A DNA stretch of 17,043 nt from the IMG/VR virus record IMGVR_UViG_2802429225_000003, positions 1 to 17,043 of that record, one strand, 5' to 3'. Below are positions 784 through 17,043 of the stretch, piece after piece. The translations under genes and the position numbers were made by a program. The stretch is from a virus (lineage: Duplodnaviria; Heunggongvirae; Uroviricota; Caudoviricetes). Each line of letters begins with the position of its first letter. Position 1 is the stretch's first letter. The notes beneath the pieces are model-generated. The model was not told the DNA's origin. It made no database searches and was given only the letters and a program-made list of their open reading frames with translations.

Positions 784-1217
784 TGGCAAACGTAATTTAT
801 CGCGGTCCGGCATATCGTCAGCCGGATACTACAAACATACAGGTTACTGGTGCGTATAAACCAGGTGTGGCGGTCATCATTTCCGCTGGCAAGCTGCTTA
901 CGACCGGTTCCGCAAAAAGCGGACGCTGGCTGATTCTCGGTAATAACGAGTTTTTAGGCCAGGACATCGATACCGCCTACACGGCGCATGAAACAGCAAC
1001 CGCTTACCGGGTACGCGCTGAAGATGAATTTAATGTGCGCCTTGCCGCAGCTACTTACGGCGTCGGACAGGAGATTACCATTGGTGCGAACGGCGTATTT
1101 AAAGCGGCTGCGTCCGGAGATGTCGTTGTCGCTGCTTTTGACGAAAAAGCCAATCGCACTTTGTCCGCTGAGGGATTTGGCGACATCGTGATCCTCAATT
1201 CCGCTTACGTTAAATAA
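783..1217 (+). CDS. Head decoration protein (lambda gpD-like position)
   Basis: 144-aa ORF immediately upstream of the major capsid gene; GGAGGAAAA Shine-Dalgarno upstream; translationally coupled to the upstream ORF; Gly/Ala-rich small protein. Call based on synteny. Confidence 0.5.
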
Positions 1218-1225
1218 GGAAAATC

Positions 1226-2287
1226 ATGCTTAAATTTACACCACAACAGCAACAGCTAATCATTAACTCCCGACGCCACTGGGACATGGAGCAGGAGCAT
1301 ATGGCACTGCGGGCGGGATATAAGGTTAACAAGGTGGGCGGCGCCATTCTTGCGGCAAACTCAGGTGACGGTAATGTGCTTGGGTTAAATCAGGGGATTA
1401 TTGGTAACGCATCCACGTTACCAAAGGATGCCTGGGGGGCATGGGACCGCTCTTTTGTTGAAGTGCAACGCGATGTTCTTGCGGTGTTTAATGACCTGGC
1501 GGGAACTGTTTCGCAGACTGTACCACTGGGTAAAATCGTGCATTTCTTCCAGATGCTGTCAGATTCCGGTGATATCAATATCAGCCTGGACGGCCGCAGC
1601 AAAGCGAAAGTCGATCAGCCAGTTCACTCGTATGAAGGTACGCCGGTTCCAATCATCGATTCGGAGCTGGAATACGGATGGCGCCAGATGTTATCTGCTC
1701 AGACTGAGGGGTATTCACTCGACTCTGACGGAATCATGAACCATCAGCGAAAAATTGCTGAAAAACTGGAAGATCTGGCTATTAATGGCGATTCCACCAT
1801 CAATGTTGGCGGAGCGACGATTTACGGTCTTCGCACAGCGCCATATCGCGCCACAGGTACTCATGGTTATACGTTGAATGGCGCGTCTGGCGCGAATTGG
1901 TTAAGTGTAATTAAGGCGGTGGTAGCAGCCATCATGGCTAAGAATTTCCGTGCCCCGGTCACCATTTATCTGAATTACGATGACTGGTTCTACGCGAGCA
2001 CCAACGATTACACGGCGAGTTATCCGAAAACTATTCTGGCGCGTTTGATGGAAATTCCCAACGTCAAGGCAATCATCCCTGCGAGCAAAGTCCCGGTAAA
2101 TGAAGTACTGGCAATTGTTAAGCGCAGTGATGTTGTGAAAGTGTTGAACGGAATGCCTCCGACTACGCGCCCGAAATCTAGACAGAATCCGGAAGATAAC
2201 TACATCTTCACTGTCATGGCCGCAGCTTCCGTGCAGTACAAGCACGACGCAGAAGGCCAGGCTGGCTACGCTCAATTCACCAAATAA
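1226..2287 (+). CDS. Major capsid protein
   Basis: 353-aa ORF in the canonical position after the decoration protein; AAGGAAAA Shine-Dalgarno 7 nt upstream; size typical of lambda gpE-type major capsid proteins. Confidence 0.65.
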
Positions 2288-2296
2288 GGGATCACC

Positions 2297-2569
2297 ATGA
2301 CCGATAAAAAACGCTGGGTTTTAACCCATGACAGTCACGAACTGAAAAAAGGAGAAATCTATGAAGATGAATCACTCCCGGCCTGGCTCGCAGGAAAAGC
2401 CGTTCCTGCGGCTGATTCTGTCGGCCCTTCTGAAAATCTGGAAAAGGCGCACGAAGCGTTGATTCAGGAGAATGAATCACTACGCGCTCAGATTGCCGAA
2501 GTCACCAGCGAAAAAGACGCCCTGGCGAAAGAAAACGCCGACCTGAAAGCTAAACTCAAAAAGGCGTAA
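2297..2569 (+). CDS. Hypothetical head-associated protein, C-terminal coiled-coil
   Basis: 90-aa ORF with AAGGGA Shine-Dalgarno; C-terminal heptad-like charged segment (ENESLRAQIAEVTSEKDALAKENADLKAKLKKA). Confidence 0.45.
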   Translation: MTDKKRWVLTHDSHELKKGEIYEDESLPAWLAGKAVPAADSVGPSENLEKAHEALIQENESLRAQIAEVTSEKDALAKENADLKAKLKKA

Positions 2570-2571
2570 TT

Positions 2572-2955
2572 ATGGCTGACAGCGGAATCACCGCTGATCA
2601 GATTAACGTGTTCCTTGCCGAACTTGGCTACTCAATACCTGCCGCACTCCTTGATCCAATCCTCTGTCGCGTGAACTCAATAACCGATTGCCTTGAGGCG
2701 AACGGCTATGACTCATGTACGCAAACGCTCATTTTGATGTACGCCGCTGCGCTTATGTGTATGTCATCAGGAGCGAGACGGTTGAAATCACAAGGTGCTC
2801 CCAGCGGGGCGAGCCGGTCATTTGAATACGGTGAGGATGCCGCCATCTGGCTGCGGGAATCATTAGGTCAACTGGATACTGCCGGATGCTCGGCGGATCT
2901 GCCAATCAGTGCTGGTGATGGTGTCGGTTTTTTCCGGGTTGTGGGAGGGGGTTAA
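2572..2955 (+). CDS. Head-tail connector / head completion protein (gp6/FI-like position)
   Basis: 127-aa ORF between the capsid and tail genes, starting 3 nt after the previous stop. Call from synteny only. Confidence 0.4.
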   Translation: MADSGITADQINVFLAELGYSIPAALLDPILCRVNSITDCLEANGYDSCTQTLILMYAAALMCMSSGARRLKSQGAPSGASRSFEYGEDAAIWLRESLGQLDTAGCSADLPISAGDGVGFFRVVGGG

Positions 2956-3125
2956 TGACGTGGAAATCTGTAAAACATTCGCTCCCACGGTCATTTACTC
3001 GCGTCTGGGTAATGACCGATACCGGGCGCGAGACAACCGGTTACGTCAAAAGCGACGGTGAATGGTTTATCAACTGTCCAAAAATCCGCGCTACCGGTGC
3101 GATCGTGTTGCGATGGAGGGAATAA
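2955..3125 (+). CDS. Small hypothetical protein (56 aa), translationally coupled
   Basis: ATG at 2955 overlaps the upstream stop (TAATG) and is preceded by GGGAGGGGG; its stop overlaps the next ATG at 3125 (TAATG). Below the 60-aa cutoff of the supplied ORF track. Confidence 0.35.
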   Translation: MTWKSVKHSLPRSFTRVWVMTDTGRETTGYVKSDGEWFINCPKIRATGAIVLRWRE

Positions 3126-3478
3126 TGTCAGCTACGGCAAACTGGTCTTATACGGCAAAAGCGACCATCTGGAAGCGTAGTGGCGTGGATGAGTGGGGCA
3201 AGCCCGCATATTCTGCGCCCGTTGTTATTACCTGCGATTACGGCGGGGATAATAAATTACCCTCGCCATTGGTCAGTGATGCCGGACAGGAGGTGGTAAT
3301 TAAAAACACCATCTGGACTGAATACGCTGAAGCGAGTCTGGGGGATTTTGCTCTCATTGGTGAATCATCCGAGCCAGATCCGATTTCTGCCGGGGCCGAT
3401 GAAGTTAAGGCGGTTATCCGCTACGCAGATACATTTGACCGGGTGGCTGATGACTTCATGCTCGTAACGGGGGCGTAA
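3125..3478 (+). CDS. Head closure / head-tail joining protein
   Basis: ORF-track start at 3062 lacks a ribosome-binding site; the ATG at 3125 is preceded by GGAGGG and overlaps the upstream stop, so the shorter 117-aa form is preferred. Position between head and tail genes. Confidence 0.5.
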   Translation: MSATANWSYTAKATIWKRSGVDEWGKPAYSAPVVITCDYGGDNKLPSPLVSDAGQEVVIKNTIWTEYAEASLGDFALIGESSEPDPISAGADEVKAVIRYADTFDRVADDFMLVTGA

Positions 3479-3846
3479 TGGCTGCAAAAGTTAAAGGTAT
3501 TAACCGGGCAAAAAAACGGCTGGACCAACTGATAGACACAATCCAGGGGAAAAAAGCTGTTCGGGCTATTTATAAAGCGTTGTACATCGGAGGGGCGCAG
3601 GCTGCGCTGTATACCCCCATCGACACGTCAACATTAATCAACTCTCAGTTTCGCGATGTTCGTCCGGGGCAAAACCGGGTTACGGGCCGCGTTGGGTATT
3701 CAGCGGGCTACGCCATGTTCGTCCACGATCCGCAGGTGAAACAACAGTTCCGGCGCGCGACGGCCAAGAAGGAGTTCCTGAAGTTAGGGTTTGACGAAAT
3801 GCGCGACCAGATTGACAGAGCAGTAGCAGAGGAGATGCGCCTTTGA
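3478..3846 (+). CDS. HK97 gp10-family tail component (neck/tail completion)
   Basis: 122-aa ORF with a PIDTSTLINS motif resembling the conserved DTGxLxNS signature of HK97 gp10-like proteins; TAATG coupling to the upstream gene. Confidence 0.55.
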   Translation: MAAKVKGINRAKKRLDQLIDTIQGKKAVRAIYKALYIGGAQAALYTPIDTSTLINSQFRDVRPGQNRVTGRVGYSAGYAMFVHDPQVKQQFRRATAKKEFLKLGFDEMRDQIDRAVAEEMRL

Positions 3847-4223
3847 GTACGCCAGTATTCATTAAATTTCGCGACTGGCTGGTTGGTGCGGGGTTGGCAG
3901 ATGGCTACACCATTCAGCTTGCGCGCTGGCTGGAGCAACCATCTGACGGCGGCTTCACTCGCTACATTGTTTTTCAGCCGAATGGAGGTACAGCACGGCT
4001 GCAGGATTTAGGGGCTGACGATAATGTGCAGGTGGTACTGGTCAGTGGCAAGAACGATGCGCAGACAGTCGTTCAGCGAGCGCAGGATATTCTGGATTAC
4101 ATCACCGAACATCCTGATAACGATTGTCTGAACGGAGTTTTTAATCTGGGTGGTATTCCTGCTCCCGCCAGTACAGAAGAGGGCCGAACGATTATCTCTT
4201 TGCTGTTCCGCTGCACATCCTGA
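3843..4223 (+). CDS. Tail terminator / tail completion protein (gpU-like position)
   Basis: 126-aa ORF with an apparent TTG start overlapping the upstream stop, AGAGGAG 8 nt upstream; last gene before the major tail protein. Confidence 0.45.
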   Translation: MSTPVFIKFRDWLVGAGLADGYTIQLARWLEQPSDGGFTRYIVFQPNGGTARLQDLGADDNVQVVLVSGKNDAQTVVQRAQDILDYITEHPDNDCLNGVFNLGGIPAPASTEEGRTIISLLFRCTS

Positions 4224-4248
4224 TCAACAAACTCTCTCCAATATACAG

Positions 4249-4271
4249 GCTGCCCCCCGGGTGGCTTTTTT
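4249..4271 (+). terminator. Putative intrinsic terminator or attenuator upstream of the major tail gene
   Basis: GCUGCC / GGUGGC stem (6 bp including G-U pairs) with a 5-nt loop, followed directly by a T6 tract. Confidence 0.35.
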
Positions 4272-4297
4272 ATTTATGAATAATGAATGAGGTTTTT

Positions 4298-5047
4298 ATG
4301 GCTAGTTGCCAGAATGACTATGGAAAATTAATTGGGCGCAACGCAGTGCTTGAGGTTGTCGAGGGCTGTCCGGACACGGTGCCGCAGGAAGCCGACTGGA
4401 AGATCCTGGGGGCGATGACGACCAAATCGTTTGACCTGTCTCCAAACACCGTAACGTCAGAAGCAGACGACACGAAAGGCTTTGTTGAGGGACTGGTAAC
4501 CAGCGTGGACTTCACCATCTCTGGTGACGGCGAATGGCGTAAGCGTGATAAGCCTGGTGATTTCGGTCCGGCGTATATGACTCGCTATTACCTGCAGGAA
4601 ACAAAAGCGGGTCGCCAGCTGTCCGTGTGGGTTCGTCTGTCGTTTGCGACTATTACTATCACGGCGTACATGAATACCACAGCGTGGAGCGGAGAATTTG
4701 GCACTGGAGATATCGCGACATTCTCGGCTGAATTCAAAGTCGCAGATGCTGACAGCGTTACTGTAACGGATGACGGTGATATCGCTGTGACGAGTATAGC
4801 GGTTACGCCCAATTCACTCGGACTGAAAGTGGGAGAAAGCGGTACATTCAGCGTGAATTTTCTCCCTGCAAACGCGACAAACAAAAATTTCACCCTGGCT
4901 ACCGCCGCGCCTGCAATTGCTACAGCCAGCGTAGCAGCCTCCACTGTAACCGTAACGGCAGTAGCGGAGGGCTCGACTACGGTAACCGTGACCAGTGACG
5001 ACGGGAAATACACATCCAGTTGTGCAGTCACTGTAACGAGCGAGTGA
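4298..5047 (+). CDS. Major tail protein with C-terminal Ig-like (Big_2-type) domain
   Basis: Thr/Val/Ala-rich C-terminal segment (TVTVTAVAEGSTTVTVTSDDGK) typical of the Ig-like decoration domains on lambda gpV-type tail tube proteins; GAGG 6 nt upstream of the ATG at 4298 (an alternative ATG at 4283 lacks a Shine-Dalgarno). Confidence 0.7.
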   Translation: MASCQNDYGKLIGRNAVLEVVEGCPDTVPQEADWKILGAMTTKSFDLSPNTVTSEADDTKGFVEGLVTSVDFTISGDGEWRKRDKPGDFGPAYMTRYYLQETKAGRQLSVWVRLSFATITITAYMNTTAWSGEFGTGDIATFSAEFKVADADSVTVTDDGDIAVTSIAVTPNSLGLKVGESGTFSVNFLPANATNKNFTLATAAPAIATASVAASTVTVTAVAEGSTTVTVTSDDGKYTSSCAVTVTSE

Positions 5048-5051
5048 GAGT

Positions 5052-5708
5052 ATGGACGCACTTACAGATATCGGCGAAATGGTGATATCAACACGCGACG
5101 ATGATTTTTTTTTGCGTCCGTCTTTTATCGCTCTGACCCGAATCGGCTCTCCGGAAGAAATTGTGGAGGCGTACTCCATCATTAACGGCAGAGATTTTGG
5201 TGTACTGGTGCGCGCTGCGGAGTTGCAGGGAGTGCCGTCACCATGGCTGGTGGAATCTGTGAGCGGAACGGCATCCAGGCGAATGCTTAACGCCGCAATG
5301 ACGGTAATTCAGGCGTGTTGTGACAGGGATGCCACAACGCTGGTGGGGGAGCTGGCAGATGATTTGACTCGTCAACACGGCCTGATACCGGATACCGATA
5401 TGCTGATTATTGCGCGTGAATTACTGGAGCATGGCGTTATGGGCAAAGCGCCACTACGCAGATTGCAAAAGCACGAGAATCAGCAGACTTATACGGCAGG
5501 CTTTCGGGCTGTAGAGTATATCACCGCCGCACGTTCACACTTTGGACTTCCACGCGCCGAAGCGGAACAGCTCACAATGACCGCATTTCAGTTAATGCTT
5601 AAAGCGAAATACCCTGAAGAGAAAGGCTTCACCCGCGATGAGTACGATGGCATTATGGCTGCGCACGAGCAGCGGAAAATGCAAAAACTGGAAGCGATGA
5701 AGGCGTAG
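5052..5708 (+). CDS. Tail assembly chaperone (G/GT-like position)
   Basis: 218-aa ORF between the major tail and tape measure genes; GAGTGAGAG Shine-Dalgarno. No overlapping -1 frame extension of 60 aa or more is present downstream. Confidence 0.45.
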   Translation: MDALTDIGEMVISTRDDDFFLRPSFIALTRIGSPEEIVEAYSIINGRDFGVLVRAAELQGVPSPWLVESVSGTASRRMLNAAMTVIQACCDRDATTLVGELADDLTRQHGLIPDTDMLIIARELLEHGVMGKAPLRRLQKHENQQTYTAGFRAVEYITAARSHFGLPRAEAEQLTMTAFQLMLKAKYPEEKGFTRDEYDGIMAAHEQRKMQKLEAMKA

Positions 5709-5787
5709 TGGATTTATGTCAGAAGAATTTGCCGACGGCAGGTAATAGAAGAAAGCCCCGGAAACATTAAGCGTTCTGTAAGTAGCT

Positions 5788-5810
5788 AAATGTTTGCCGA
5801 GGCAACATTT
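5788..5810. promoter_or_regulatory. Imperfect inverted repeat (stem of about 10 bp) in an AT-rich intergenic region
   Basis: AAATGTTTGCC-GA-GGCAACATTT; lies downstream of both the + strand chaperone gene and the - strand acidic gene; no adjacent U-tract on either strand. Confidence 0.3.
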
Positions 5811-5901
5811 ATATGCTCAATACATTCAGATTAACCTTTTTCCCCCTCTTGGTTAAGGAGGCGACGGTTATTAAGTTACCAAAACAGGTGCTGCGCTTGT
5901 G

Positions 5902-6270
5902 TTATTCATGATGTGAATATTGCAAATCGTCAGCTTCACGAGATATATCAAAAAGGATATTTATCGCCAGAAGATATGCATTATCTACAACGCCATATGT
6001 CTCTGGAGTGATAGTGTTAGTATATCGATCGAAAGCATCTTCCAGGTAATCAAGCAAATCGTCATTTAAATACTCACTTCTCGGATCAAGCGCATGCAGA
6101 CCTTTAATACTCTCTCTATATTCGCTGAAGATTTTTGATATAAACGCTTGTTGTTCTGACCAATCATACAAATTAGCAATGGTAAGAGGCCTGTTAAGTT
6201 GTTCAAGTCGGGTGAGTTCACGAACCAACGACTGACAACCATCTCGAAGTTTTTCTGCTGTTAATGCCAT
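5902..6270 (-). CDS. Small acidic hypothetical protein (122 aa); antisense moron within the tail module
   Basis: Only convincing minus-strand gene in the window. The ATG at 6270-6268 is preceded by AGAGGG with a 6-nt spacer; the longer ORF-track form (to 6339) has no ribosome-binding site. Protein carries about 24 Asp/Glu against about 11 Lys/Arg. Flanked by AT-rich non-coding DNA. Confidence 0.55.
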   Translation of the reverse strand: MALTAEKLRDGCQSLVRELTRLEQLNRPLTIANLYDWSEQQAFISKIFSEYRESIKGLHALDPRSEYLNDDLLDYLEDAFDRYTNTITPETYGVVDNAYLLAINILFDISREADDLQYSHHE

Positions 6271-6412
6271 AATTAGCCCTCTGAGATTATTTATAGAAAG
6301 TAATATCTTACTATTTTTGCATTGAAGGCGGAGCTTCACCAGCCAGTTTTGTCAATTCAGTTATGGTGAGCGACTCCTGGCCTTCATGATGTATGACGAT
6401 GTAACAAGACCA

Positions 6413-6437
6413 CCTCGCTCCGGCGGGGTTTTTTATT
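6413..6437 (+). terminator. Hairpin plus T-tract just upstream of the tape measure start
   Basis: CCUCGC-UCCG-GCGGGG stem-loop (6 bp with one G-U pair, tetraloop) followed by TTTTTTATT, ending 15 nt before the tape measure ATG. Confidence 0.3.
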
Positions 6438-6451
6438 GCCCGGAGAATGAC

Positions 6452-9400
6452 ATGGCAGATGAGAAGAACGTCGGCAGTATCGTTTATGAAATAAGCGCAG
6501 ATGTCAAACCGCTGCTACAGGGCGGGAAGCAGGCCATTGATGCACTGGACAAACTGGATACTGCAGCCCAGCAGTCTGGAAGAGGGATGAGTAACCTGGA
6601 CCAGAGCGCGTCGCAAACCGGCACCACGTTTACTGAACTGGCCAGTTATGCTAACTCAATGGACAATCAGCTTCGTAAGCTGAACACCAGCGTGAGCGGT
6701 ATTGCGCGCGCGATGATGGAGGCTCGTACTGGTGTCAGCAGTACCACGAGTGAGTTAAATCGTGGCAATGCAGTAATTGAAGCACTCGGTAACCAGGTCG
6801 CAATACTTGAGGAAGCCCAGGAGAACGGAGCCAGAAGCGCAGCAGTTTTCGCCTCGCAGTTAAGAGCTGGTGCCAATGCTACGGAGGAAGAAAAGCGCAC
6901 TATCGCCGAATTGGCAGGCGTGTTTTATGATCTTAGCGCCGCCTCCGCTAAGGCTGCTAAATCAGCCGCATCGATGGCGGCCGCAACCCAACGTACAGAA
7001 TCATCAATATCCGGACTAGAGAAGGAAGTCTCTATTCTGAATACTGAGATGCAAACTGGTTCCAGAAGTGCTGCCATACTTGCTGCTCAGTTTAGTGCTG
7101 GTGAAGGTGCGTCTGACGCGCAAAAAGCCAAAATTGCACAGCTTGCAGGTGCTCTTTTTGATATGCGGGAGGCGCAAAAATCTGCATCTGCGGCATCAGC
7201 GGAGGCAGCTAAGCAACTTGCGCAGCAGGCAAATGAAGCGAACCGTATCAGCGGAATCACATCTGACCTTTCTAATCAAATAGCTATCCTGAGCGAACAG
7301 CAAACCAACGGAGCCCGCAGCGCAGCAATTCTGGCTGCTCAGTTACGAGCCGGAGCAAGTGCAACTGATGCCGATAAGCAGAAAATAGCCCAATTAACCG
7401 GGCAACTGTACGACATGAAGAACAGTGTCGATACAGGCACAAAAAGCCACGTCAACTGGAAAACCAGCGTACAGCAGGCCGGTTACCAGGTTCAGGACTT
7501 CATTGTTCAGGTGCAGGGTGGTCAGTCTGCTCTTGTTGCGCTCTCGCAGCAAGGATCTCAGCTTGCCGGGATTTTCGGCCCTGGCGGTGCGGTGGTTGGG
7601 GCTATAATTGCGCTTGGTTCTGTCCTCGCGGGCGTGTTGATTACGTCGCTGAATGGCGGCAAGAATGCCATGGTTGCGCTGAAAGAGGCTGCCGAGGCAA
7701 TGGACAAGGTGATCATCGTATCATCACAAGGTGTAGCCGCTCTTTCGGATAAATATGCGGCCCTTGCGCGTGTAAACGCTGACGTTGCAACGCTGCTCCG
7801 TAATCAGGCGCTGCTTGAGTATAACCAGGCCATTTCCAAGATACCGAAGGCCATAAGCGAAGCATCTGATGCTTTTATTACGTTCGGCGACCGTGCGATT
7901 GCCGCCGTTGGCGGGGCGTCGCCGAGCATCAAAAAATTCAACGCCGAGTTGTCCGCTCTCGGGGTCACTTCGAAGGAATGGGGAGAGGCAATTCAGCAGG
8001 CCAATAGTCAGGGGCAGTACGCATCTGGCATCGTAAACTCGCTGTCATCAACGGTGAATACACTTTCATCCCGACTTGGAATAAGCAAACAAGCTGCGTT
8101 TGATTTGGCAAGAGAATTGTCAAATCTGAGTAATAACCCATCACCGGAAGCACTTCAGGAGCTGGCGAAAAAACTCCAGGACATGAAGTCGTCATCCACT
8201 GACGGGCAGTCGGCCATCGCAGGACTGGCGGGTAAGCTTGTTGATCTGGCGAGAGAGGCAGCCAACGCGAAGATCAATGTAGACAGCCTGAATCAGTCCA
8301 CCGATAACCTGACCGCCGGACAGAAAAACCTTATCAAGCAGTCCGGACGTAACCTTGCCCTGTCAAAACTACAGGGTGAGGCTCGGGCCCGCCTGCAGGC
8401 ACAGTATGCCGCTGAAGATGCGGGATTTTCGAAGGACGATCCGCACGCCAAACAGATGGAGAACGACGCCGCAGCTACGTACAAAAATACGCAGGCGCAG
8501 AAAGATTTCCAGTCAACACATAAGAAAAGCATTTCACTGGCTGATTCTGTTGCTCAGAAGTTAGCGAATCTCAAGCAGCAATCGGAGCTCGCAGCCGACT
8601 CAACAAATGAGCTGAGCCGTGAGCAGGCCATGCTGACTGCGCAGCAGTCTCTTGGTAAAGGTGCAACCAAAGAGCAGATCGTATTAGCTGGTCAGTATGC
8701 AGCAAAAAAATGGGATACAGCCAACGCCATAAAAGCTGAAGCAGCGGCCCGAAAGCTCCTCCCTGAAGCAGCAGAGAACGCCAGTTACAAACAGGATGTT
8801 GAAGATCTGAATACCGCCCTGGCTGCGAAGAAAATAAGCCAGGAGCAGTACAATCAAACCTCGGAAAGACTGGCAGCAACACACCAGGCTAACCTCGCAA
8901 AAATTCAGTCGCAGCAGGTGGTAACGCCTCAACAGGAACTTGCGGCGCAGGTTGATCCCGTTCAGCAACTGGCGAATGAGAACGCAAAGAAACTGATACT
9001 CATTGATGAGTACAACAAGGCTGCGCTTGCAATCGTAAATGCAAGGCTGGCTAATGAGTCGCTAAGTCAGAGTGAAGCTGCTGCACAGTCAGCCGCTATT
9101 AACGCAAATACTCTTGCGTTAAAAAATACTCAGGAAACACAGTATGAGGAACAGAGGCTGGCAGCTCTGGAGCAGCAGTACCGTGCGCAATCAGTGTTGA
9201 ATGACTTTACGATGGATATGATCGACGCAGTCGGGCAACGAACCACCAACGCAATCACCGGCATTATTACCGGAACGCAGTCAGCAACAGATGCGCTACG
9301 AAATATGGCTTCAACAATTCTTGATCAGGCCGTTGGTGCTTTAGTTCAGATGGGTGTCCAGGCACTTAAAAACATGCTGATAGGGCAGTCAGCCAGTGCT

Positions 9401-9910
9401 GCTTCTGTTGCGCAGGCTGCAATAACAGGGCCTGCCATTGCCGCAGCATACAGCCCGGCAGCGGCGATGGTTTCGCTCGCATCATTTGGTGCAAATGCCG
9501 CAGCAGCTCAGACGGGGATCGCTTCAACAATGGGACTTACAAAAATGCTGTCCGTCGCTGGCGCTCGCTACAACGGTGGCCCGGTTTCCGCTAACTCAAT
9601 GTATCGCGTAGGTGAAAACGGCAAGCCAGAAATATTCCAGGCCAGCAACGGCAGTCAGTACATGATCCCCGGCGATAACGGACGAGTTGTCAGCAACAGA
9701 GATATGCAGGGCGGAAATAGTTCATCTCCTGTAAATATTGTCATTAACAATACGGCAGCGGGAACCGTTGTAGAAAATCAGGGTTTTAATCCGGACACGA
9801 AAACTATCACCCTCGCAGTGAACGAAGTCGCAAGGCAATTACGCTCGCATACGGGGGTAGTTGCTCGTGCATTGTCTGATAGCTGGAACACCACAGGAAA
9901 GGCACAATAA
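6452..9910 (+). CDS. Tail tape measure protein
   Basis: Longest ORF (about 1152 aa from the ATG at 6452, which has GGAGA 5 nt upstream; the upstream ATG at 6386 has none). Ala/Gln-rich helical composition, internal tandem repeats, a central hydrophobic Gly-rich segment (AGIFGPGGAVVGAIIALGSVLAGVLITSL) and placement before the tail-tip genes. Confidence 0.85.
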   Translation: MADEKNVGSIVYEISADVKPLLQGGKQAIDALDKLDTAAQQSGRGMSNLDQSASQTGTTFTELASYANSMDNQLRKLNTSVSGIARAMMEARTGVSSTTSELNRGNAVIEALGNQVAILEEAQENGARSAAVFASQLRAGANATEEEKRTIAELAGVFYDLSAASAKAAKSAASMAAATQRTESSISGLEKEVSILNTEMQTGSRSAAILAAQFSAGEGASDAQKAKIAQLAGALFDMREAQKSASAASAEAAKQLAQQANEANRISGITSDLSNQIAILSEQQTNGARSAAILAAQLRAGASATDADKQKIAQLTGQLYDMKNSVDTGTKSHVNWKTSVQQAGYQVQDFIVQVQGGQSALVALSQQGSQLAGIFGPGGAVVGAIIALGSVLAGVLITSLNGGKNAMVALKEAAEAMDKVIIVSSQGVAALSDKYAALARVNADVATLLRNQALLEYNQAISKIPKAISEASDAFITFGDRAIAAVGGASPSIKKFNAELSALGVTSKEWGEAIQQANSQGQYASGIVNSLSSTVNTLSSRLGISKQAAFDLARELSNLSNNPSPEALQELAKKLQDMKSSSTDGQSAIAGLAGKLVDLAREAANAKINVDSLNQSTDNLTAGQKNLIKQSGRNLALSKLQGEARARLQAQYAAEDAGFSKDDPHAKQMENDAAATYKNTQAQKDFQSTHKKSISLADSVAQKLANLKQQSELAADSTNELSREQAMLTAQQSLGKGATKEQIVLAGQYAAKKWDTANAIKAEAAARKLLPEAAENASYKQDVEDLNTALAAKKISQEQYNQTSERLAATHQANLAKIQSQQVVTPQQELAAQVDPVQQLANENAKKLILIDEYNKAALAIVNARLANESLSQSEAAAQSAAINANTLALKNTQETQYEEQRLAALEQQYRAQSVLNDFTMDMIDAVGQRTTNAITGIITGTQSATDALRNMASTILDQAVGALVQMGVQALKNMLIGQSASAASVAQAAITGPAIAAAYSPAAAMVSLASFGANAAAAQTGIASTMGLTKMLSVAGARYNGGPVSANSMYRVGENGKPEIFQASNGSQYMIPGDNGRVVSNRDMQGGNSSSPVNIVINNTAAGTVVENQGFNPDTKTITLAVNEVARQLRSHTGVVARALSDSWNTTGKAQ
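6750..7440 (+). repeat. Three in-frame tandem repeats of about 77-84 codons inside the tape measure gene
   Basis: Recurring peptide units NGARSAAVFASQLRAGANATEEEKRTIAELAGVFYDL / TGSRSAAILAAQFSAGEGASDAQKAKIAQLAGALFDM / NGARSAAILAAQLRAGASATDADKQKIAQLTGQLYDM, with cores starting near 6824, 7055 and 7307. Confidence 0.6.
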
Positions 9911-10383
9911 TGGCAACGGAAATTAAATGGCCGTTAGGTCTTCACACAATTCAAAAATCCAGTAAAGCGCGCAATCAGTCGGCAGCTTTTCAGTTATCCG
10001 ATCCACGCAGTGGTCCGCCATATCGCAAGCGGCTAAGTGATGACGTGCCGGTTATCTGGGACGTCACATTTATCTTCGCTGGAGACAATGCAACCATATT
10101 CTGGTCGTGGTTTGAAAACGCCATTGACCGTGGGCGCAAAAACTTCATTCTACCCATTGCAACAGAGTTTGGGATTGTTGATCACGAAGTAATGTTTCTG
10201 CCTGGCTCACTGCTACCAGCCAGCGAAGCTGGTACGGTTTTCACGTATACGGCGCAAATCCTTGCCCGCAAACTTGTTATCCCGGCGGAGTTCCCTGACG
10301 ACATCTGGATTGATCCGGATATCTGGAAGTATCGCAGCATTCTCGATCCGGCTGTTAACTGGTACTGGCCAAATAATCCATAG
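9910..10383 (+). CDS. Minor tail protein (tail tip assembly)
   Basis: 157-aa ORF whose ATG overlaps the tape measure stop (ATAATG); first gene after the tape measure, as for lambda gpM or the distal-tail protein of other long-tailed phages. Confidence 0.5.
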   Translation: MATEIKWPLGLHTIQKSSKARNQSAAFQLSDPRSGPPYRKRLSDDVPVIWDVTFIFAGDNATIFWSWFENAIDRGRKNFILPIATEFGIVDHEVMFLPGSLLPASEAGTVFTYTAQILARKLVIPAEFPDDIWIDPDIWKYRSILDPAVNWYWPNNP

Positions 10384-10388
10384 GAAGC

Positions 10389-10889
10389 ATGATGCCTGTC
10401 ACTGATGAGCAGCGGGCGTACTGGAGCCAGAAAAATCCAGCAGCAGAATTTGATACTGTAACATTTACGCACCCGGCCTTTAAGGATCCGATACGACTGG
10501 TCGCCAATGTCTTCAGCGACATGACATTCAACGGTAATACCTACCGCGCCTGCTCAATGGAAATTGACAAGCCCGAACAAGGGAAAGACCCGGTTAGTAG
10601 CGTCAGCGTGAAGTTTAGCCGTCCGCTGGTGGGCGATGAATTTAAGGCAATCATACGGGCGATGGACCCGTTCGACTGGCTGGCGGCACCTATCACTCTA
10701 TGTTTGCAGCAATTCACAGAGGATGACCCGAATAACCCCATTCAAAATTGGTCGCTTTACGTGACCGAAGACGGTATCCGTATTAGCCGAGACACATTGC
10801 AGGTGCAGGCATCCGACGATAACCCGATGATCCTCAATATGAGCCAAGTCTACGATCTCGATCGCTACCCCAGCCTTACATACATATAG
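10389..10889 (+). CDS. Minor tail protein (tail tip assembly)
   Basis: 166-aa ORF, second gene after the tape measure, with a short intergenic gap and an AGGAAG Shine-Dalgarno. Confidence 0.5.
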   Translation: MMPVTDEQRAYWSQKNPAAEFDTVTFTHPAFKDPIRLVANVFSDMTFNGNTYRACSMEIDKPEQGKDPVSSVSVKFSRPLVGDEFKAIIRAMDPFDWLAAPITLCLQQFTEDDPNNPIQNWSLYVTEDGIRISRDTLQVQASDDNPMILNMSQVYDLDRYPSLTYI

Positions 10890-10897
10890 GTTCCTTA

Positions 10898-11326
10898 ATG
10901 ACAAAAGATGAATTTATCCGGCGCGCCGTTGGCCTGCCGTGGGTTGATCGCGCCTGTAGCTGGCGAGCGATGGACTGTTGGGGCGTGGTGGTTATGTATT
11001 TTCGCTATGTCTACGGCGAGGAATTGCCCTGTGTTGAGGGGTATTCCAGCGGCGAAATCAAAATCACCGACGGATTTCAACGCCAAATCCAGAGTGGTAA
11101 ATGGCGGCGCGTTGAATCCCCCGAGGGTGACTGTATTGCATTTATGTTGTTTAAGCAGGGCGTGGCCTCTCACGTTGGCGTGGTTGTGGATGGGCAATAT
11201 GTTTTACACGCCGCAGGTGATGCGCAACATGAGGGGCAGGTGCGCTGCGACCGACTTGATACATTCAGACGGTTTCATCGAGGGGAAATGATTTTTTATG
11301 CCTGGGAGGGGGGCCGATGCTTGTAA
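10898..11326 (+). CDS. NlpC/P60-family tail-associated peptidase (gpK-like)
   Basis: 142-aa protein with a Cys-containing motif (AMDCWGVVV) and a downstream His-rich segment (SHVGVVVDGQYVLHAAG) consistent with the NlpC/P60 Cys-His catalytic core; position matches the lambda K / gene transfer agent g14 slot. Confidence 0.6.
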   Translation: MTKDEFIRRAVGLPWVDRACSWRAMDCWGVVVMYFRYVYGEELPCVEGYSSGEIKITDGFQRQIQSGKWRRVESPEGDCIAFMLFKQGVASHVGVVVDGQYVLHAAGDAQHEGQVRCDRLDTFRRFHRGEMIFYAWEGGRCL

Positions 11327-13832
11327 TTTATCGCGATCCACGCGGTTTGCTGGTAAGGATGTTTATGAGTTCGATTATTCACTTTCCCTGCAAGATAATA
11401 TCGCAAAGCACTTTCCCGGCGGGCTTGATGCCAGCACGACGCTGATTACATGGAACGGTTGCAAAATTAACCCACTTGAAGTTGACTTGTCGCGCCTCGC
11501 GACGCCGCTGGATCACCTGGAAATCATCATCCGACAGCAGGGGATTGGCACCATGCTGATTGTGGCCATCGTGGCGGCAGTTGCTACGGTTGTGCTGATG
11601 CCTAAGCCCACAATCCCCAACTCCAGTGGTTCGCAGAAAGATTCACCTAATAACGATCTCACAGGACAAACCAACGTCGCACGGGTATATCAGGCAGTTC
11701 CGGATATTTACGGTAAGATCCGCGCCTTTCCCGACCTTGTGGCTCCCTCCTTATCTGAATATATAAACAACGTTAAAAACGTAACCGAGGTGTTGTGCGT
11801 TGGGATTGGCGATTATGAATTTGAAAACGTCAAATATGCAGACACATTACTGAGCACCATTGGTGGCGCGTCGTATGAAATATTTAACCCCGGCGACACC
11901 ATTCCAATACTGTATGACGCAGCTGAATCACCGGACGTTGACGGCCAGGAAATTACACCGCCAAACCTGGGCGACACGGTTCTGTATAGCGCGACGACAA
12001 ACAATATTGTTGCTGTTGAGTATGCGAAGGGCAGTAAGGCAATGTCTTTCACGGTACCTAAAAGCGCTGATTTTCAATATTTTGTCGATAAATCAAAGCC
12101 GATTAATGTGAGACTGACGGTAAATCTTGAATATTCAGTTGTCAGCGGCAACGGTAAGACAACAACGAAGAAAGGGGAGTTTCAGGTCAGTGGACAGATC
12201 GTCAGTATTGGTCAGTCAGATAATGGAGATATTATCGCTCCAGAGAACTATTACGATATTGGCATAGATAACGCAACGGTAAGTAACGACTTCCCGGCTG
12301 ATGGCGTCATTACAGGTGATTACCTGAAAATTGAGGATATGGAGGCGTTATTTGTCGGGCCGTTCATCATGGCTTCTGATTCTGATGAAATCTGGTACAA
12401 CGTCATTTTTCAGCGCGGACTGGACGGAACCGCAAATTTAAACGCTGAGTGGTGGCGGGTAGACAAAGACAATAATGTGATTGAGGGGACAGAGGAATCA
12501 GATTCTTTTTCCTATAGCAATGATACGTATGAAGGGCAGTATTTCACTCGCAAGATTATCCCGAAAGCCGGGCGTGGGCGCTACGCATTCCGTATTTCTC
12601 GCACTAATAACGGCAGCGATCAGCTTACTGACCAGGCCAAACTGGAAGAAGTTTATTCAGTTCAGGTTCGACGAAATGTTCGGGTGCAGGACACATTAAT
12701 TCGCTGCGTTACTCCAGCAACGGAACAGGCAACCGGCATTAAAGACCGAAAATTTAATGCTGAGGTGACACGGAAAACGATTACATGGAACGGATCTGGG
12801 GTGGTAGGTGCGTTGACCCCAAGCCGTGATTTTGCTGATGCAGTACTTCATTCGTTTGTCAGGATTGCAGGTCGCGCTGCCAGTGAGCTGGATCTTGATG
12901 CGTTGTACAGTATCAGTCGATCCCTTAAAAACAAGAATGAGCGCATGGGATGGTTCGATTTCTCATTCGATGACAAAGACATCTCACTCGGTCAGCGATT
13001 GCAAACCATATGTAATGCAGCGCGTGTTACGGTATTTCGTGACGGGCTGAAGTGGCGTTTTGTGCGTGACGAGAAGAAAAGCATTATCTCTGCGCAATTT
13101 GATGCCCGTAATCTGGCGAACGTCGATGATGGCGGTACGCTTCAGTATAAGGGACACCTGCCGACAAGTTACGATGGGATTGAACTGGAATGGGTGGACG
13201 CCACGGATACAAATGATGATGGCACAGATAAAAAGGCGTACATCCGATTACGCATTGACGCGTCTCGCAAACGTATTGTGGAAGGCACTTCAAATCGCCC
13301 CTATAAAATCCAGCTTGCCGGGTGCCGCAACAAAGACCAGGCGATGAATCGTGCGCAGCTTGAAGCGAGGCGACTTATCTATCAGCGACTGAGTGTGGAG
13401 GATACGGCACTTAACGATGCGTGGATGCTGTCGCTTGGTGATCGGGTGCGCTGGGCTGACGTTTACGATGAGGCGATTGCCAGCGGTGAAATATTGTCAA
13501 TTGACGGTAATGTGTTCACCACTTCTGAAACTCTCATTTTTGAAAGTGGGGAAACATACAAAGTCAGTATCACAGATCAGTACGGATACCCTTCAGCATG
13601 GATAAGCGCATTGCCAGTAAATGGTAATAAAAGCGCCTTCAGTACTGATTTCAGCAAGGCTTATACCGCCGACGGCATTACTTCCATGCTTGGCAGTCGT
13701 TTCATTATGACGCCTTCAGTTGCCAGTGAACCTATGGATTTCACGCTTACTGAGAAAGGGCCTGGAAGTGACCCTTCACAAACCAGGATCTCGCTCACTC
13801 AATATGATGAACGAGTGTACGAATACGATTAA
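11298..13832 (+). CDS. Tail tip / host-specificity protein (J-like), possibly with an I-like N-terminal region
   Basis: 844-aa ORF overlapping the upstream gene by 29 nt; hydrophobic helix (GIGTMLIVAIVAAVATVVLMP, about nt 11541-11603) followed by a YGKIR motif reminiscent of the C-terminus of tail assembly protein I family members; large protein in the slot before the tailspike. Confidence 0.55.
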   Translation: MPGRGADACNLSRSTRFAGKDVYEFDYSLSLQDNIAKHFPGGLDASTTLITWNGCKINPLEVDLSRLATPLDHLEIIIRQQGIGTMLIVAIVAAVATVVLMPKPTIPNSSGSQKDSPNNDLTGQTNVARVYQAVPDIYGKIRAFPDLVAPSLSEYINNVKNVTEVLCVGIGDYEFENVKYADTLLSTIGGASYEIFNPGDTIPILYDAAESPDVDGQEITPPNLGDTVLYSATTNNIVAVEYAKGSKAMSFTVPKSADFQYFVDKSKPINVRLTVNLEYSVVSGNGKTTTKKGEFQVSGQIVSIGQSDNGDIIAPENYYDIGIDNATVSNDFPADGVITGDYLKIEDMEALFVGPFIMASDSDEIWYNVIFQRGLDGTANLNAEWWRVDKDNNVIEGTEESDSFSYSNDTYEGQYFTRKIIPKAGRGRYAFRISRTNNGSDQLTDQAKLEEVYSVQVRRNVRVQDTLIRCVTPATEQATGIKDRKFNAEVTRKTITWNGSGVVGALTPSRDFADAVLHSFVRIAGRAASELDLDALYSISRSLKNKNERMGWFDFSFDDKDISLGQRLQTICNAARVTVFRDGLKWRFVRDEKKSIISAQFDARNLANVDDGGTLQYKGHLPTSYDGIELEWVDATDTNDDGTDKKAYIRLRIDASRKRIVEGTSNRPYKIQLAGCRNKDQAMNRAQLEARRLIYQRLSVEDTALNDAWMLSLGDRVRWADVYDEAIASGEILSIDGNVFTTSETLIFESGETYKVSITDQYGYPSAWISALPVNGNKSAFSTDFSKAYTADGITSMLGSRFIMTPSVASEPMDFTLTEKGPGSDPSQTRISLTQYDERVYEYD

Positions 13833-13855
13833 CAGATAACTCCTGTTCACCAATG

Positions 13856-13878
13856 CTCGCCGCTGTGCGGGTTTTTTT
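13856..13878 (+). terminator. Putative intrinsic terminator after the tail-tip gene
   Basis: CUCGC / GCGGG stem (5 bp) with a 6-nt loop, followed by a T7 tract. Confidence 0.4.
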
Positions 13879-13889
13879 ATGGAAAAATT

Positions 13890-15864
13890 ATGGCCACACG
13901 TTACAACACCAATAATCCTGTGCCGTCCCATGCGGTTAAAGATTACAGCAACAACGCCCAAATCATTGATGAACTTGTTCATAAACAGGAATCAACAACA
14001 AAAGACCGGTTCGGAAAAGATCTGAAAACCTGGTACGGAATTAATAAAGAGGCGACCGACGCAACGAACGAGTTCATCGAAAACGGTCAGAATGCAATAA
14101 ATACGTTTAACCAGAATGGCAAGGATGCTATCGATAAATTTAGCAACGATAGCAATGCTGCGATTAATGATTTCGAGAGTGATGCGAATCAGGCGATAAT
14201 TAATTACGGTTATATTCTGGTTGACTCATTTCAGATCGGTGCTGAGATCACGCTCCGGAATCAGGCTCTTCACTGGCCTGCGCCAGAGGGTGACGGAGAA
14301 TATTATCGCTGGGACGGTGAATTGCCGAAGACGGTTCCAGCCGGAGCTACGCCGGAAACGTCAGGTGGGGTTGGGCCGGGAGCGTGGATTGACGTTGGTG
14401 ATGCTTCGCTGCGTAGCGATCTGGCGTCTGGAGGTAAGGCTGCATTGGTTGGCTATGGCAGCGCGACTGTAGAGGGTGCTCTTGACGATCTTTATGCCGC
14501 TAACGCTGCTCAGGGGGGGAAACTGGTTTTGATACTGTTGGCCACTTTCTTAATCTGACTGAATTACGTGCGCAGGCGCCTGCTTCAGCCGGAATGATTG
14601 TATATGTTGTTTCAGCAGCCAGCTTGTCACATGCAGAAACTCATCTTGGCGGCGGTTTTTTTGAGTCAGTCGATAATGTCCAGGCATGGCCTGATGATGG
14701 TGGTATTGTAATTAAACCAGACACAGGGTCGATTGTGTGGCGACGCATTAACTTCACCTCATACGATATGCAATTCTGGGGTGTCAAGCCGGACGGGGCT
14801 ACAGATAATGCGGAGGCAATTACGAAGGCCACACAGTATGCAAAGATGAATAAAGTTATCCTGGATGCACCCGCAGGGAATATTAACACAAGCGAAATGG
14901 TCCCTATTTATAATAATATGGGGATTCGAGGCCACGGAAAGGCTGAAGCTACGGTTTTCTATAAAACAACTAACAATATTTTTAATTATAAAAAAATGGA
15001 ACCACAGTTTTATCTGTGGACGCATTGGTAGGTTTTGTTCCAAATAATTGGGATCTTGCTGACTCTTCAATGGATTCATTTTGCTCTAACGGCAGAATTG
15101 AGAGCTGTATGTTTCGTAGACAGGGACTTGACCAATCAAACGTTGACACCTACAGAAATTATTATGGGTTGTTTTTTGGGAAGGCTGCTGCACCTGTAGT
15201 TCGGCAATGTTCATTTGAATGCGCATATATTGGATGTTATTCATACTGTCCATTCTCAGGAGTCATGGAAATGGTTGCATTCCCTCAATATGCAGGGAAG
15301 GGGTATGGTGGGATCGTTTTTGAGGATTTTCGTGGCGGTCAGATAAGGGTAATTGGTACATCAATGGACATGCGTCTTGTTCAAATAAGCGGTTATCAGT
15401 TTGGTTTTATTTTGTCAGGAATGCAATATACAACAATGACAAACTGTACTGCAGAAAATTGCACTCCAATGGCTGGAGAAACGACTTGCTTTGCATTTAG
15501 CTTCATGAACCCTTATTGTATTGTCATGAATACGTGCGCAACAGAAGAAGTAAAGGGCGGGCAGTTAAGAGTAATAGTTCAAGGAGATCCGTCTTTCAGA
15601 CCATCTTTAATTATAAATGGATTTTTGCCTATAGGTCAGAAAAACCCAATTTCAACAACCCCAATCATTTATGTAGACAATGCGGGCCTTGCAGAAACCA
15701 GCGTGATAATTAACGGAGGTGATTGGGCTATAAGTCCATCAGCAACCAACCTTGTCGCACCATCGGCTAGTGGTGGTGGCACGAAGGTCAGAATGATAGG
15801 AGTCAATGGCTCACCTAAATCAATTTGGACCATCTCCGCTAACGCCGATGTGCAGGAGTTTTGA
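13890..15864 (+). pseudogene. Tailspike / depolymerase-like receptor-binding protein, interrupted by two frameshifts at homopolymer tracts (or intact if the tracts are under-called)
   Basis: Three consecutive ORFs in three frames (13890..14558, 14594..15031, 15016..15864). Adding one G to the G7 run at 14513-14519 and one A to the A7 run at 14990-14996 gives one continuous protein of about 658 aa. It has an Asn-rich repeat N-terminus, an LRSDLASGGKAALVGYG segment, a beta-helix-like start (FWGVKPDGATDNAEAITKATQYA) and a Cys-rich C-terminal part. Confidence 0.6.
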
Positions 15865-15927
15865 TTCCCTGTCATTGACATAGCATCTATATGAAACTAC
15901 CCTGCCAGAAACTACACATATTTTGGC

Positions 15928-17043
15928 ATGGTTATGACTAAGAAAAGCAATATAATACATAGTCTTACTTCATTGAGGATGTTTGCTGCCCTTGGCGTGT
16001 TTGTAAGCCATCTGGGAATTTTGTCTCAGTCCTCAATACATCAGTTCAACATAGCTGCAAAATACTTTTTTAATGGGTATGTTGGCGTAACGTTCTTCTA
16101 TATCCTCTCTGGCTTTATTATTAATTACAGTTTTAGCAAGCATTTATCTGAGGGGATGTTTAGCAATAAAGACTTTATTATCTATCGTCTGGCCAGACTA
16201 TTCCCTGTTCATCTTGTTTCACTGGTCTGTGTTCTGTTTTTATTCGGCTATGCAAATAATTGGGGATCTACAAACAAAGAAGCTTTATTCTATAATACAT
16301 TTCTACTTCAATCATTCATACCTGATGCAGGCTATTACTTTTCGTTCAATCCTGTATCATGGAGCATTTCATGCGAAATGTTCTTTTATTTTTGTTTTTG
16401 CCTACTCGTTAAATGCAAAACCAAATATCTCGTATTTCTATTTGCTGCCGTTCAGACTGTAAATGTTTACTTCCTTATACAACCACCAACAGGAATTTCC
16501 TTGCATTGGTTATTCTATATAAATCCTGTATTCAGGATTACAGATTTCATCCTTGGCATTATTATATGTAGAATATTTCTTTCGAAGCCTGTTACTCCAA
16601 AAGTTGTGGCGTGTAGCGCAATGGAATTTGGCTCAATTATTTTTCTAGTGTTAACAATTTATGTGGCAACAAACTACGTGGGCAATATGAATGTTAAATA
16701 TGATCTTTTATATATCCCTTGCATGGCTTCTATTGTTGTTGCGTTTGCCTTTAATGGTGGGGTTATTTCTCGTATTCTTGCAAATAAATATTTAATTTTG
16801 CTTGGAGAAGCTTCATTTTCTTTCTACATGTTCCACTGGATGATAGTATCTAAGTTAATAGAAATAATACAACCTAACAAAAACGATGTGCGTGATGTCA
16901 CTATTTATATAGTTAGCTGCTTAATCAGCTCCGTATTTGTCTCTGTTATTTCGTTTAAATTAATTGAAATGCCAGCAAATAAGTTAATAAGGAATACGTG
17001 GGTAAAGATTAAAATTCAATTACACACAAGAAAACGCGCATAA
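15928..17043 (+). CDS. Acyltransferase-3 family integral membrane protein (O-antigen acetyltransferase-like, probable lysogenic conversion gene)
   Basis: 371-aa strongly hydrophobic multi-pass protein; N-terminal LTSLRMFAALGVFVSH matches the conserved Arg/His-containing first helix of acyltransferase-3 (OafA/Oac-type) enzymes; very low GC; immediately downstream of the tailspike. Start could be the ATG at 15934 instead. Confidence 0.7.
   Translation: MVMTKKSNIIHSLTSLRMFAALGVFVSHLGILSQSSIHQFNIAAKYFFNGYVGVTFFYILSGFIINYSFSKHLSEGMFSNKDFIIYRLARLFPVHLVSLVCVLFLFGYANNWGSTNKEALFYNTFLLQSFIPDAGYYFSFNPVSWSISCEMFFYFCFCLLVKCKTKYLVFLFAAVQTVNVYFLIQPPTGISLHWLFYINPVFRITDFILGIIICRIFLSKPVTPKVVACSAMEFGSIIFLVLTIYVATNYVGNMNVKYDLLYIPCMASIVVAFAFNGGVISRILANKYLILLGEASFSFYMFHWMIVSKLIEIIQPNKNDVRDVTIYIVSCLISSVFVSVISFKLIEMPANKLIRNTWVKIKIQLHTRKRA

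Follow-up and report, generated by a model that had tools for sequence, protein, structure and literature searches.

A candidate O-antigen-modifying acyltransferase gene coupled to a decayed tailspike gene in an Escherichia marmotae prophage

Results and Discussion

The acyltransferase gene and its product

The window (the whole 17,043-nucleotide stretch analysed here, IMG/VR virus record IMGVR_UViG_2802429225_000003) ends in a gene for an integral-membrane acyltransferase of the acyltransferase-3 (AT3) family, placed directly after a tailspike gene, as a preliminary description of this DNA had stated; the tailspike gene itself is broken into three frames. The last open reading frame (ORF) of the window occupies 15928-17043 on the plus strand (371 codons, with TAA as the final three bases), and the AT3 gene within it is taken as 15934-17043 (369 amino acids (aa), stop at 17041-17043) on the evidence of Pfam PF01757, PHROG 3333 and database protein WP_105267625.1 ("acyltransferase family protein [Escherichia]", 369 aa), which is identical to the window product from the second ATG, at 15934. 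The genes run in the order tape measure, DUF1833, NlpC/P60, J-like protein (844 aa), tailspike and AT3. An exact look-up places the protein on nine contigs, among them CP188181.1, a 4.71-Mb chromosome that was published as that of Escherichia marmotae of rodent origin (PMC12211086), and the four records retrieved are 100% identical to the window over 13701-17043, the stretch compared.

Past the window come a hairpin terminator (23 nt beyond the end), about 500 bp with no called gene, a lipoprotein gene, the 3' part of a tRNA-Leu with a terminator, and then yecA-tyrP-yecH-ftnA. The last gene of the prophage is the one for this predicted lipoprotein of 139 aa (PHROG 890, E 3.8e-52), at 11661-12080 of the complete genome record L002, about 620 nt beyond the window end. 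The tRNA-Leu part extends from anticodon loop to CCA end, at about 12304-12358 of L002, just before the terminator and yecA; a complete tRNA is not detected by ARAGORN at the right prophage end. This fragment is probably the right attachment site (attR) of a prophage integrated in the tRNA-Leu gene beside yecA, which is probably leuZ of the K-12 map. The AT3 gene is the second-to-last gene at the right end of an E. marmotae siphovirus-type prophage, a classic position for a moron.

A hidden Markov model search with Pfam Acyl_transf_3 (PF01757), the check that had been suggested for the family assignment, returns a match above the curated threshold (71.5 bits against a cut-off of 31, E 8e-20) covering residues 11-341 and profile positions 2-323 of 326. 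The PHROG 3333 family, "O-acetyltransferase", matches at full length (residues 7-363, E 1.7e-67). Hydropathy peaks fit about ten membrane segments, in keeping with the membrane topology expected, and the AlphaFold2 model is all-helical (predicted local distance difference test 90.7, predicted template-modelling score 0.89). Its only strong structural matches are the transmembrane acetyl- and acyltransferases HGSNAT (8jkv, 8tu9) and GWT1 (8xik), which differ from the window protein in being eukaryotic, in sharing only 9-13% identity with it and in carrying extra domains; a Foldseek search with the model does not recover these two. A sequence-profile search of the PDB with the AT3 protein yields no sequence-level relative, and NCBIfam and PADLOC yield no match to it.

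In an alignment of 44 AT3 homologues (32-79% identity; residues numbered from the ATG at 15934), the invariant positions are H26, F54, F55, L58, S59, G60, F61, R85, R88, W143, S144, S146, E148, H301 and E345, and R15 is near-invariant (at least 90% of the 44). R15-X10-H26 forms the R/K-X10-H motif in helix 1, and R85-L-A-R88, with both arginines invariant, forms the RxxR motif in the first cytoplasmic loop. Both motifs are reported to be essential in OafA/OafB and in Sf6 Oac (PMC9558356). Of the 63 columns conserved at 90% or more among the other 43 homologues, the window protein retains all; the ratio of nonsynonymous to synonymous substitution (dN/dS) against three relatives is 0.09-0.10 (with dS above 1.3), and the gene carries no frameshift despite its 34% guanine-plus-cytosine (GC) content and many homopolymers. 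An SGNH domain is absent (369 aa, one Pfam domain), which makes the protein "AT3-only", as Oac is. With its single (AT3-only) domain and about ten transmembrane helices, the product is an integral-membrane acyltransferase, intact and under purifying selection.

A chance ORF is excluded, because the frame is 1.1 kb long in DNA of 34% GC and its product has 282 database relatives at E <= 1e-3; together with the Pfam match and the identical database protein, this bears out the earlier call of an AT3 gene at the window end. Among the matches listed in a scan of genome contigs, one (L006) is a close relative and the rest are mostly distant AT3 genes. As for the start, the homologues' start codon aligns with window position 15934 in every case, and the in-frame ATG at 15928 was created by a G-to-T change within a conserved inverted repeat; for both reasons 15934 is preferred, and on this comparison the ATG at 15928 is probably not used.

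The gene is, as had been noticed, far more AT-rich than the structural operon (GC 0.338, against 0.50 for window positions 1-13889, the tail operon), and it does lack a Shine-Dalgarno sequence, with nothing resembling GGAGG in the 20 nt before either ATG (15928 or 15934). The further step of taking these two traits as signs of recent foreign origin does not survive comparison with the homologues. Homologous AT3 genes have 30-40% GC inside loci of 42-57% GC, and a Shine-Dalgarno sequence is likewise absent at all homologous AT3 loci compared; since the homologues share both traits, neither marks a recent arrival. The nearest DNA relatives are 72-74% identical, with saturated synonymous sites (the closest DNA to the cassette described below is only 74% identical, and no near-identical donor is on record). 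For neaT, a prophage AT3 gene of E. coli CFT073, the case has been made that it stays "unameliorated" whatever the GC of the host (PMC3573123), and low GC as proof of recent transfer is ruled out by that argument and the homologue comparison. The GC drop begins in the C-terminal half of the tailspike, already at 0.427, so the AT-rich segment exceeds the AT3 gene.

A tailspike-AT3 cassette shared by unrelated phages

The AT3 gene and the part of the tailspike gene that encodes its receptor-binding half are physically linked, forming a cassette exchanged between unrelated phage backbones. This mobile cassette (tailspike receptor-binding half, spacer and AT3 gene; 14523-17002, plus strand) is one contiguous blastn block of about 2.5 kb, and the GC drop starts with it; homology is uninterrupted from 14523 or 14596 to about 17000, straight through the intergenic spacer. 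Close AT3 relatives stand directly behind tailspikes or tail fibres in four phage types. The cassette is 74% identical to Cronobacter epsilon15-like prophages (L088/L090: 697-aa tailspike, AT3, holin and lysis genes), 72% identical to E. coli P22-like prophages (L085/L086: Head_binding tailspike, AT3, integrase) and 69% identical to gp48-gp49 of Escherichia phage TL-2011b; one more epsilon15-like prophage carries the same tailspike-AT3 arrangement, and in a sister siphovirus (L258) an intact 603-aa tailspike gene is followed by the AT3 gene. A Cedecea Mu-like prophage has only 15844-16978, the spacer and AT3, in common with the window. No match to 13800-17043 turns up by megablast in the collections of phage genomes and of complete E. 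coli genomes, and the whole window gives trivial matches only, of at most 90 bases.

At the protein level, the C-terminal part of the window tailspike shares 73-79% identity with the tailspikes from each of the three other backbones, while its N-terminal part is 17-22% identical to the podovirus types and 54.5% identical to the sister siphovirus. On this comparison, the unit that moves is the receptor-binding domain with spacer and AT3, or the spacer and AT3 alone.

The closest named relative is TL-2011b gp49, an "O-acetyltransferase" (YP_007002000.1) with 61% protein identity over the full length and also a member of PHROG 3333; its function is assigned by annotation, and we found no experimental test of it in the literature. 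As in the window, it directly follows a tailspike gene (gp48, 697 aa, PHROG 38237) whose receptor-binding part is 72.8% identical to that of the window, and the two genes are separated by the same kind of spacer (69-70 nt, with TTGACA-17-TAnnCT and a hairpin, which in TL-2011b has a compensatory G-C pair). In contrast to the window, TL-2011b has the Uetakevirus (epsilon15-like podovirus) backbone, a tailspike N-terminus of only 20.5% identity, an intact tailspike, and lysis genes rather than a prophage end after the AT3 gene.

Three AT3 relatives adjoin gtr genes for O-antigen glucosylation. In Cedecea, AT3 follows a tail fibre and a chaperone gene and is next to gtrB/gtrC-like genes. The Hafnia order is tailspike, a 436-aa ORF with no family match, gtrB, gtrA and AT3. 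In Franconibacter pulveris (L249/L250, 2708-7113), a 79%-identical AT3 faces gtrA-gtrB-gtrC in a chromosomal islet flanked by cls/yciY and tonB. Phage genes are absent from the surroundings, and the islet resembles an O-antigen modification module left stranded.

One database protein (P0219, 714 aa) has both Acyl_transf_3 and Phage_tail_beta Pfam matches, and represents either a gene-call fusion or a real fusion of tailspike and acyltransferase.

A conserved spacer with a promoter-like site and an inverted repeat

The spacer was compared across 13 distinct homologous loci (at least 60% protein identity, four phage backbones), in which the distance from tailspike stop to AT3 ATG is 69-70 nt, and 69 nt in the window itself. 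It holds a promoter-like site at 15875-15903 on the plus strand, with a -35 element TTGACA at 15875-15880, a 17-nt variable spacer and a -10 element TACCCT at 15898-15903. The pattern TTGACA-17-TAnnCT is invariant and fixed at -59 from the ATG in 13 of the 13 distinct spacers, its function as a promoter being putative. A consensus promoter scan does not report the site at 15875-15903, because the -10 matches at 3 of 6 positions. When the spacer pattern was used to scan viral contigs, one further variant appeared; in metagenomes, 1 among the 120 matches listed precedes an AT3 gene. A sigma-54 promoter in the TGGCA was rejected by eye, the GG-N10-GC spacing being unmet.

An inverted repeat, and possible RNA hairpin, follows at 15902-15929 (plus strand): CTGCCAGAA at 15902-15910, a 10-nt loop, and TTTTGGCAT at 15921-15929, where the form given for the homologous loci is CTGCCAGAA-N10-TTCTGGCAG. 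Its 5' arm overlaps the -10 and its 3' arm stops 4 nt before the ATG. Alignment cells are paired in 90.6% of cases, against 26-50% with a slid partner; at 3 of the 9 hairpin pairs both bases have changed in a compensatory way, and the window and Cedecea each contain G-U pairs. Shuffles attain the observed pairing values in 9-45 of 500 trials, so that covariation support for the hairpin is suggestive, not decisive. RNA folding of the region gives -11.8 to -19.3 kcal/mol (z -3.2 to -5.1), and Rfam has no family at this hairpin. The hairpin was also considered, and rejected, as a terminator of the late operon, as no T-run follows it.

Because the 5' arm overlaps the -10, a transcript from the promoter-like site would lack that arm, and only read-through from the tailspike could form the hairpin. 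It is conceivable, though we regard it as unlikely, that the cassette is a "receptor reader plus receptor eraser" with its own expression logic: hairpin-free lysogenic transcripts would be translated despite having no Shine-Dalgarno sequence, late read-through would fold over the start region and keep AT3 off in lytic growth, and host range would be carried between backbones along with a promoter-dependent translational switch.

A terminator-like hairpin with a T-run is also seen upstream, at 13855-13872 between the J-like and tailspike genes; on account of it, the tailspike-AT3 cassette may be a separate transcription unit or may need antitermination.

Relation to characterised acetylases and proposed function

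Oac of Shigella phage Sf6, a serotype-converting O-antigen acetylase, is like the window protein an AT3-only protein of a temperate phage with the R...H and RxxR motifs (window R85/R88 align with Sf6 RARR). Its gene sits between the tailspike gene and the integrase gene and attachment site (int/att), and acetylation of the O-antigen blocks Sf6's own tailspike (PMC9558356). It differs in length (333 aa) and in being convergent to the tailspike gene. Oac of phiV10, an epsilon15-like temperate phage of Escherichia, is the same kind of gene beside a tailspike, although it encodes 338 aa and lies on the opposite strand; it acetylates the O157 antigen and confers superinfection immunity (PMC11854483). 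OafA/OafB of Salmonella (GtrC family II) have an AT3 domain with the same motifs, acetylate O-antigen and are in some cases prophage-borne (PMC9558356), but their AT3 domain is fused to a periplasmic SGNH domain. By every test applied the window protein appears Oac-like, belonging on sequence to the same AT3 superfamily, in a different subfamily, and to be the orthologue of no characterised Oac. It is a prophage gene of a well-known kind and an ordinary example of it; the cassette, the spacer elements and the contrast of dead tailspike and intact AT3 add some interest and no new principle.

The preliminary description had proposed a candidate O-antigen acetylase acting in lysogenic conversion, and the protein family, the motifs, the predicted fold, the prophage-end position and the tailspike and gtr context all lend support. 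By analogy, we consider it likely that the AT3 protein O-acetylates the O-antigen recognised by the linked tailspike and so blocks phage attachment, as a conversion gene. As with the Oac proteins of Sf6 and phiV10, the enzyme would take acetyl from cytoplasmic acetyl-CoA, with helix 1 residues R15...H26 and, from the first cytoplasmic loop, R85-x-x-R88 taking part in the uptake. The acetyl group would be passed across the inner membrane and put on the polysaccharide seen by the linked tailspike, most probably an O103-like O-antigen. O-antigen so modified would escape binding or cleavage by tailspikes of that subtype, and the lysogen would thereby be protected from superinfection and have its surface antigen changed. 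Expression in the lysogen would start from TTGACA-17-TAnnCT in the spacer, with the transcript predicted to end at the hairpin terminator 23 nt past the window.

The acceptor is named from the tailspike. The receptor-binding subtype of the TL-2011b tailspike is predicted to be specific for E. coli O103 (PMC10408124, PMC11522302), and the C-part of the window tailspike, at 72.8% identity to that of TL-2011b, falls in the same subtype by the published 30% criterion. Because of this subtype membership, the probable acceptor is an O103-like O-antigen.

Several points weigh against this interpretation. That the subtype is specific for O103 is itself predicted in the literature, and tailspikes of this subtype are also found in Cronobacter, Cedecea, Yersinia and Proteus. 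The acceptors of AT3-only proteins are many, with enterobacterial common antigen (ECA), periplasmic glucans, exopolysaccharides and antibiotics among them (PMC9558356), for which reason the acceptor is inferred from context alone. No characterised member of this AT3 subfamily was found, nor any close characterised homologue: Sf6 Oac aligns at 31% identity, and only across the first 96 residues (E 1e-5; hhalign probability 90.6% over 149 columns), similarity to phiV10 Oac is not significant in pairwise comparison (E 0.06), and BLASTP detects none to NeaT (E 4.8). The -10 is weak (3 of 6 positions) and the promoter scan was negative, expression in the lysogen being only predicted. Finally, the four locus records are identical over 13701-17043, and therefore provide no independent evidence that AT3 was maintained after the tailspike decayed.

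The breadth of AT3-only acceptors also opens another reading, in which the enzyme acylates some other envelope glycan (capsule or K-antigen, colanic acid, ECA, periplasmic glucans or peptidoglycan) and the "tailspike" is a depolymerase of capsule or exopolysaccharide. The middle tailspike fragment does match a PHROG annotated "EPS (exopolysaccharide) depolymerase" (E 1.4e-11), and the receptor-binding subtype is also present in genera by which E. coli O103 is not made. Set against this, the gtrA/B/C genes adjoining three of the relatives act on O-antigen, and the literature assigns the tailspike subtype to the O103 O-antigen. The gene here is moreover an accessory prophage gene with few Escherichia records (9 contigs), unlike conserved housekeeping AT3 genes, of which wecH, found in many Enterobacteriaceae and outside phage elements, is an example (PMC9558356). 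We therefore judge a different glycan to be improbable and O-antigen acetylation to remain the likely activity.

Prophage O-antigen acetylases alter serotype, phage susceptibility and the epitopes relevant to vaccines and diagnosis. If the proposal is right, this AT3 protein would define an uncharacterised subfamily across Escherichia, Cronobacter, Cedecea, Franconibacter, Hafnia and Aeromonas, and its acceptor is probably an O103-like antigen, relevant to typing and phage-based detection of E. coli that produce Shiga toxin (STEC). The tight linkage of a receptor-binding domain to a probable receptor-masking enzyme is a clear case of host range and exclusion travelling jointly across podo-, sipho- and myovirus backbones.

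The decayed tailspike

The inactivated tailspike gene (13890-15864, plus strand) lies in three reading frames, separated by two one-base frameshifts. Frame 0 (13890-14558) holds Tail_spike_N (PF18668); frame 2 (14594-15031, with homology from 14519) matches PHROG 38237 positions 276-407 (E 5e-71); and frame 1 (15016-15864, with homology from 14992) matches positions 416-697 of the same family (E 1e-152). The first frameshift falls at a G7 homopolymer (14513-14519), where G8 would restore the frame, and the second at an A7 homopolymer (14990-14996), where A8 would do so; with one G and one A inserted, the three pieces become one 658-aa ORF that is gapless against intact homologues across both sites. 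Intact homologues have no long G or A runs there, both runs being specific to this lineage. Intact proteins of 603-610 aa with the same Tail_spike_N and beta-helix architecture exist, none closer than 64%. The frameshifts are not sequencing errors, since they recur unchanged in four independent records, of which one is a complete genome, one a draft genome and two are read-set assemblies made independently. Programmed frameshifting was considered and rejected: the A-run has no phased X XXY YYZ heptamer, and the homologues are single ORFs without these homopolymers. The prophage is probably unable to make adsorbing particles, while AT3 is untouched.

Two frameshifts in the adjoining gene raise the question of whether AT3 is silent cargo of a decaying prophage, without current effect and intact only because little time has passed since inactivation. 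Over the 3.3 kb compared, every known copy of the locus is the same, which leaves no within-lineage sign of selection, and the gene has no Shine-Dalgarno sequence and a weak -10. The missing Shine-Dalgarno sequence is, however, the norm of the subfamily; the promoter-like element is intact in a layout found in all relatives; and the protein keeps 63 of 63 highly conserved columns, with no frameshift in a homopolymer-rich gene of 34% GC. Silent cargo thus seems quite unlikely to us. Under the favoured reading of a working O-antigen acetylase, the gene probably now serves the bacterium rather than the phage, since its own tailspike is dead and the acyltransferase is not. A dead tailspike beside an intact AT3 gene would illustrate how a bacterium keeps a useful conversion gene from a decaying prophage.

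What the bacterium gains might lie mainly in its interaction with the animal host (antigenic change, altered aggregation or uptake by phagocytes), with phage exclusion secondary. NeaT of E. coli CFT073, needed for systemic virulence, is the precedent: a prophage AT3 beside tail-fibre genes and, like the window gene, strongly AT-rich (29.8% GC; PMC3573123). With the tailspike dead, self-exclusion no longer helps this phage, which would fit such a role. NeaT differs, though, in belonging to a P2-like prophage, in lying on the opposite strand and in having no assigned acceptor, and the window protein has no detectable sequence similarity to it; the tight linkage to one particular tailspike receptor-binding domain also argues that a phage-receptor relation holds the pair together. 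A primarily animal-directed benefit is accordingly very improbable in our estimate. The two roles are compatible, not mutually exclusive.

Other genes of the prophage

The AT3 gene had been put forward as the phenotype-conferring cargo of this prophage. It stands as a candidate for that role but is not the sole one, because the lipoprotein gene beyond the window and a minus-strand ORF in a second low-GC patch are candidates as well. The stretch of about 500 bp ahead of the lipoprotein gene contains G8 and A-run tracts. Further upstream, gene calls for the J-like tail protein differ, giving 759 aa in the complete genome (L002 5620-7899) and 844 aa in L003-L005 (5365-7899).

The minus-strand ORF, at 5902-6339, has 145 codons from a GTG (about 122 aa from an internal ATG, as called in L002) and lies between the DUF6246 and tape-measure genes in a patch of 0.40-0.42 GC. 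Pfam, PHROG, NCBIfam and PADLOC give no match for it. In the sister phage L258 a different ORF, on the plus strand, takes its place, and the ORF at 5902-6339 is possibly a second moron.

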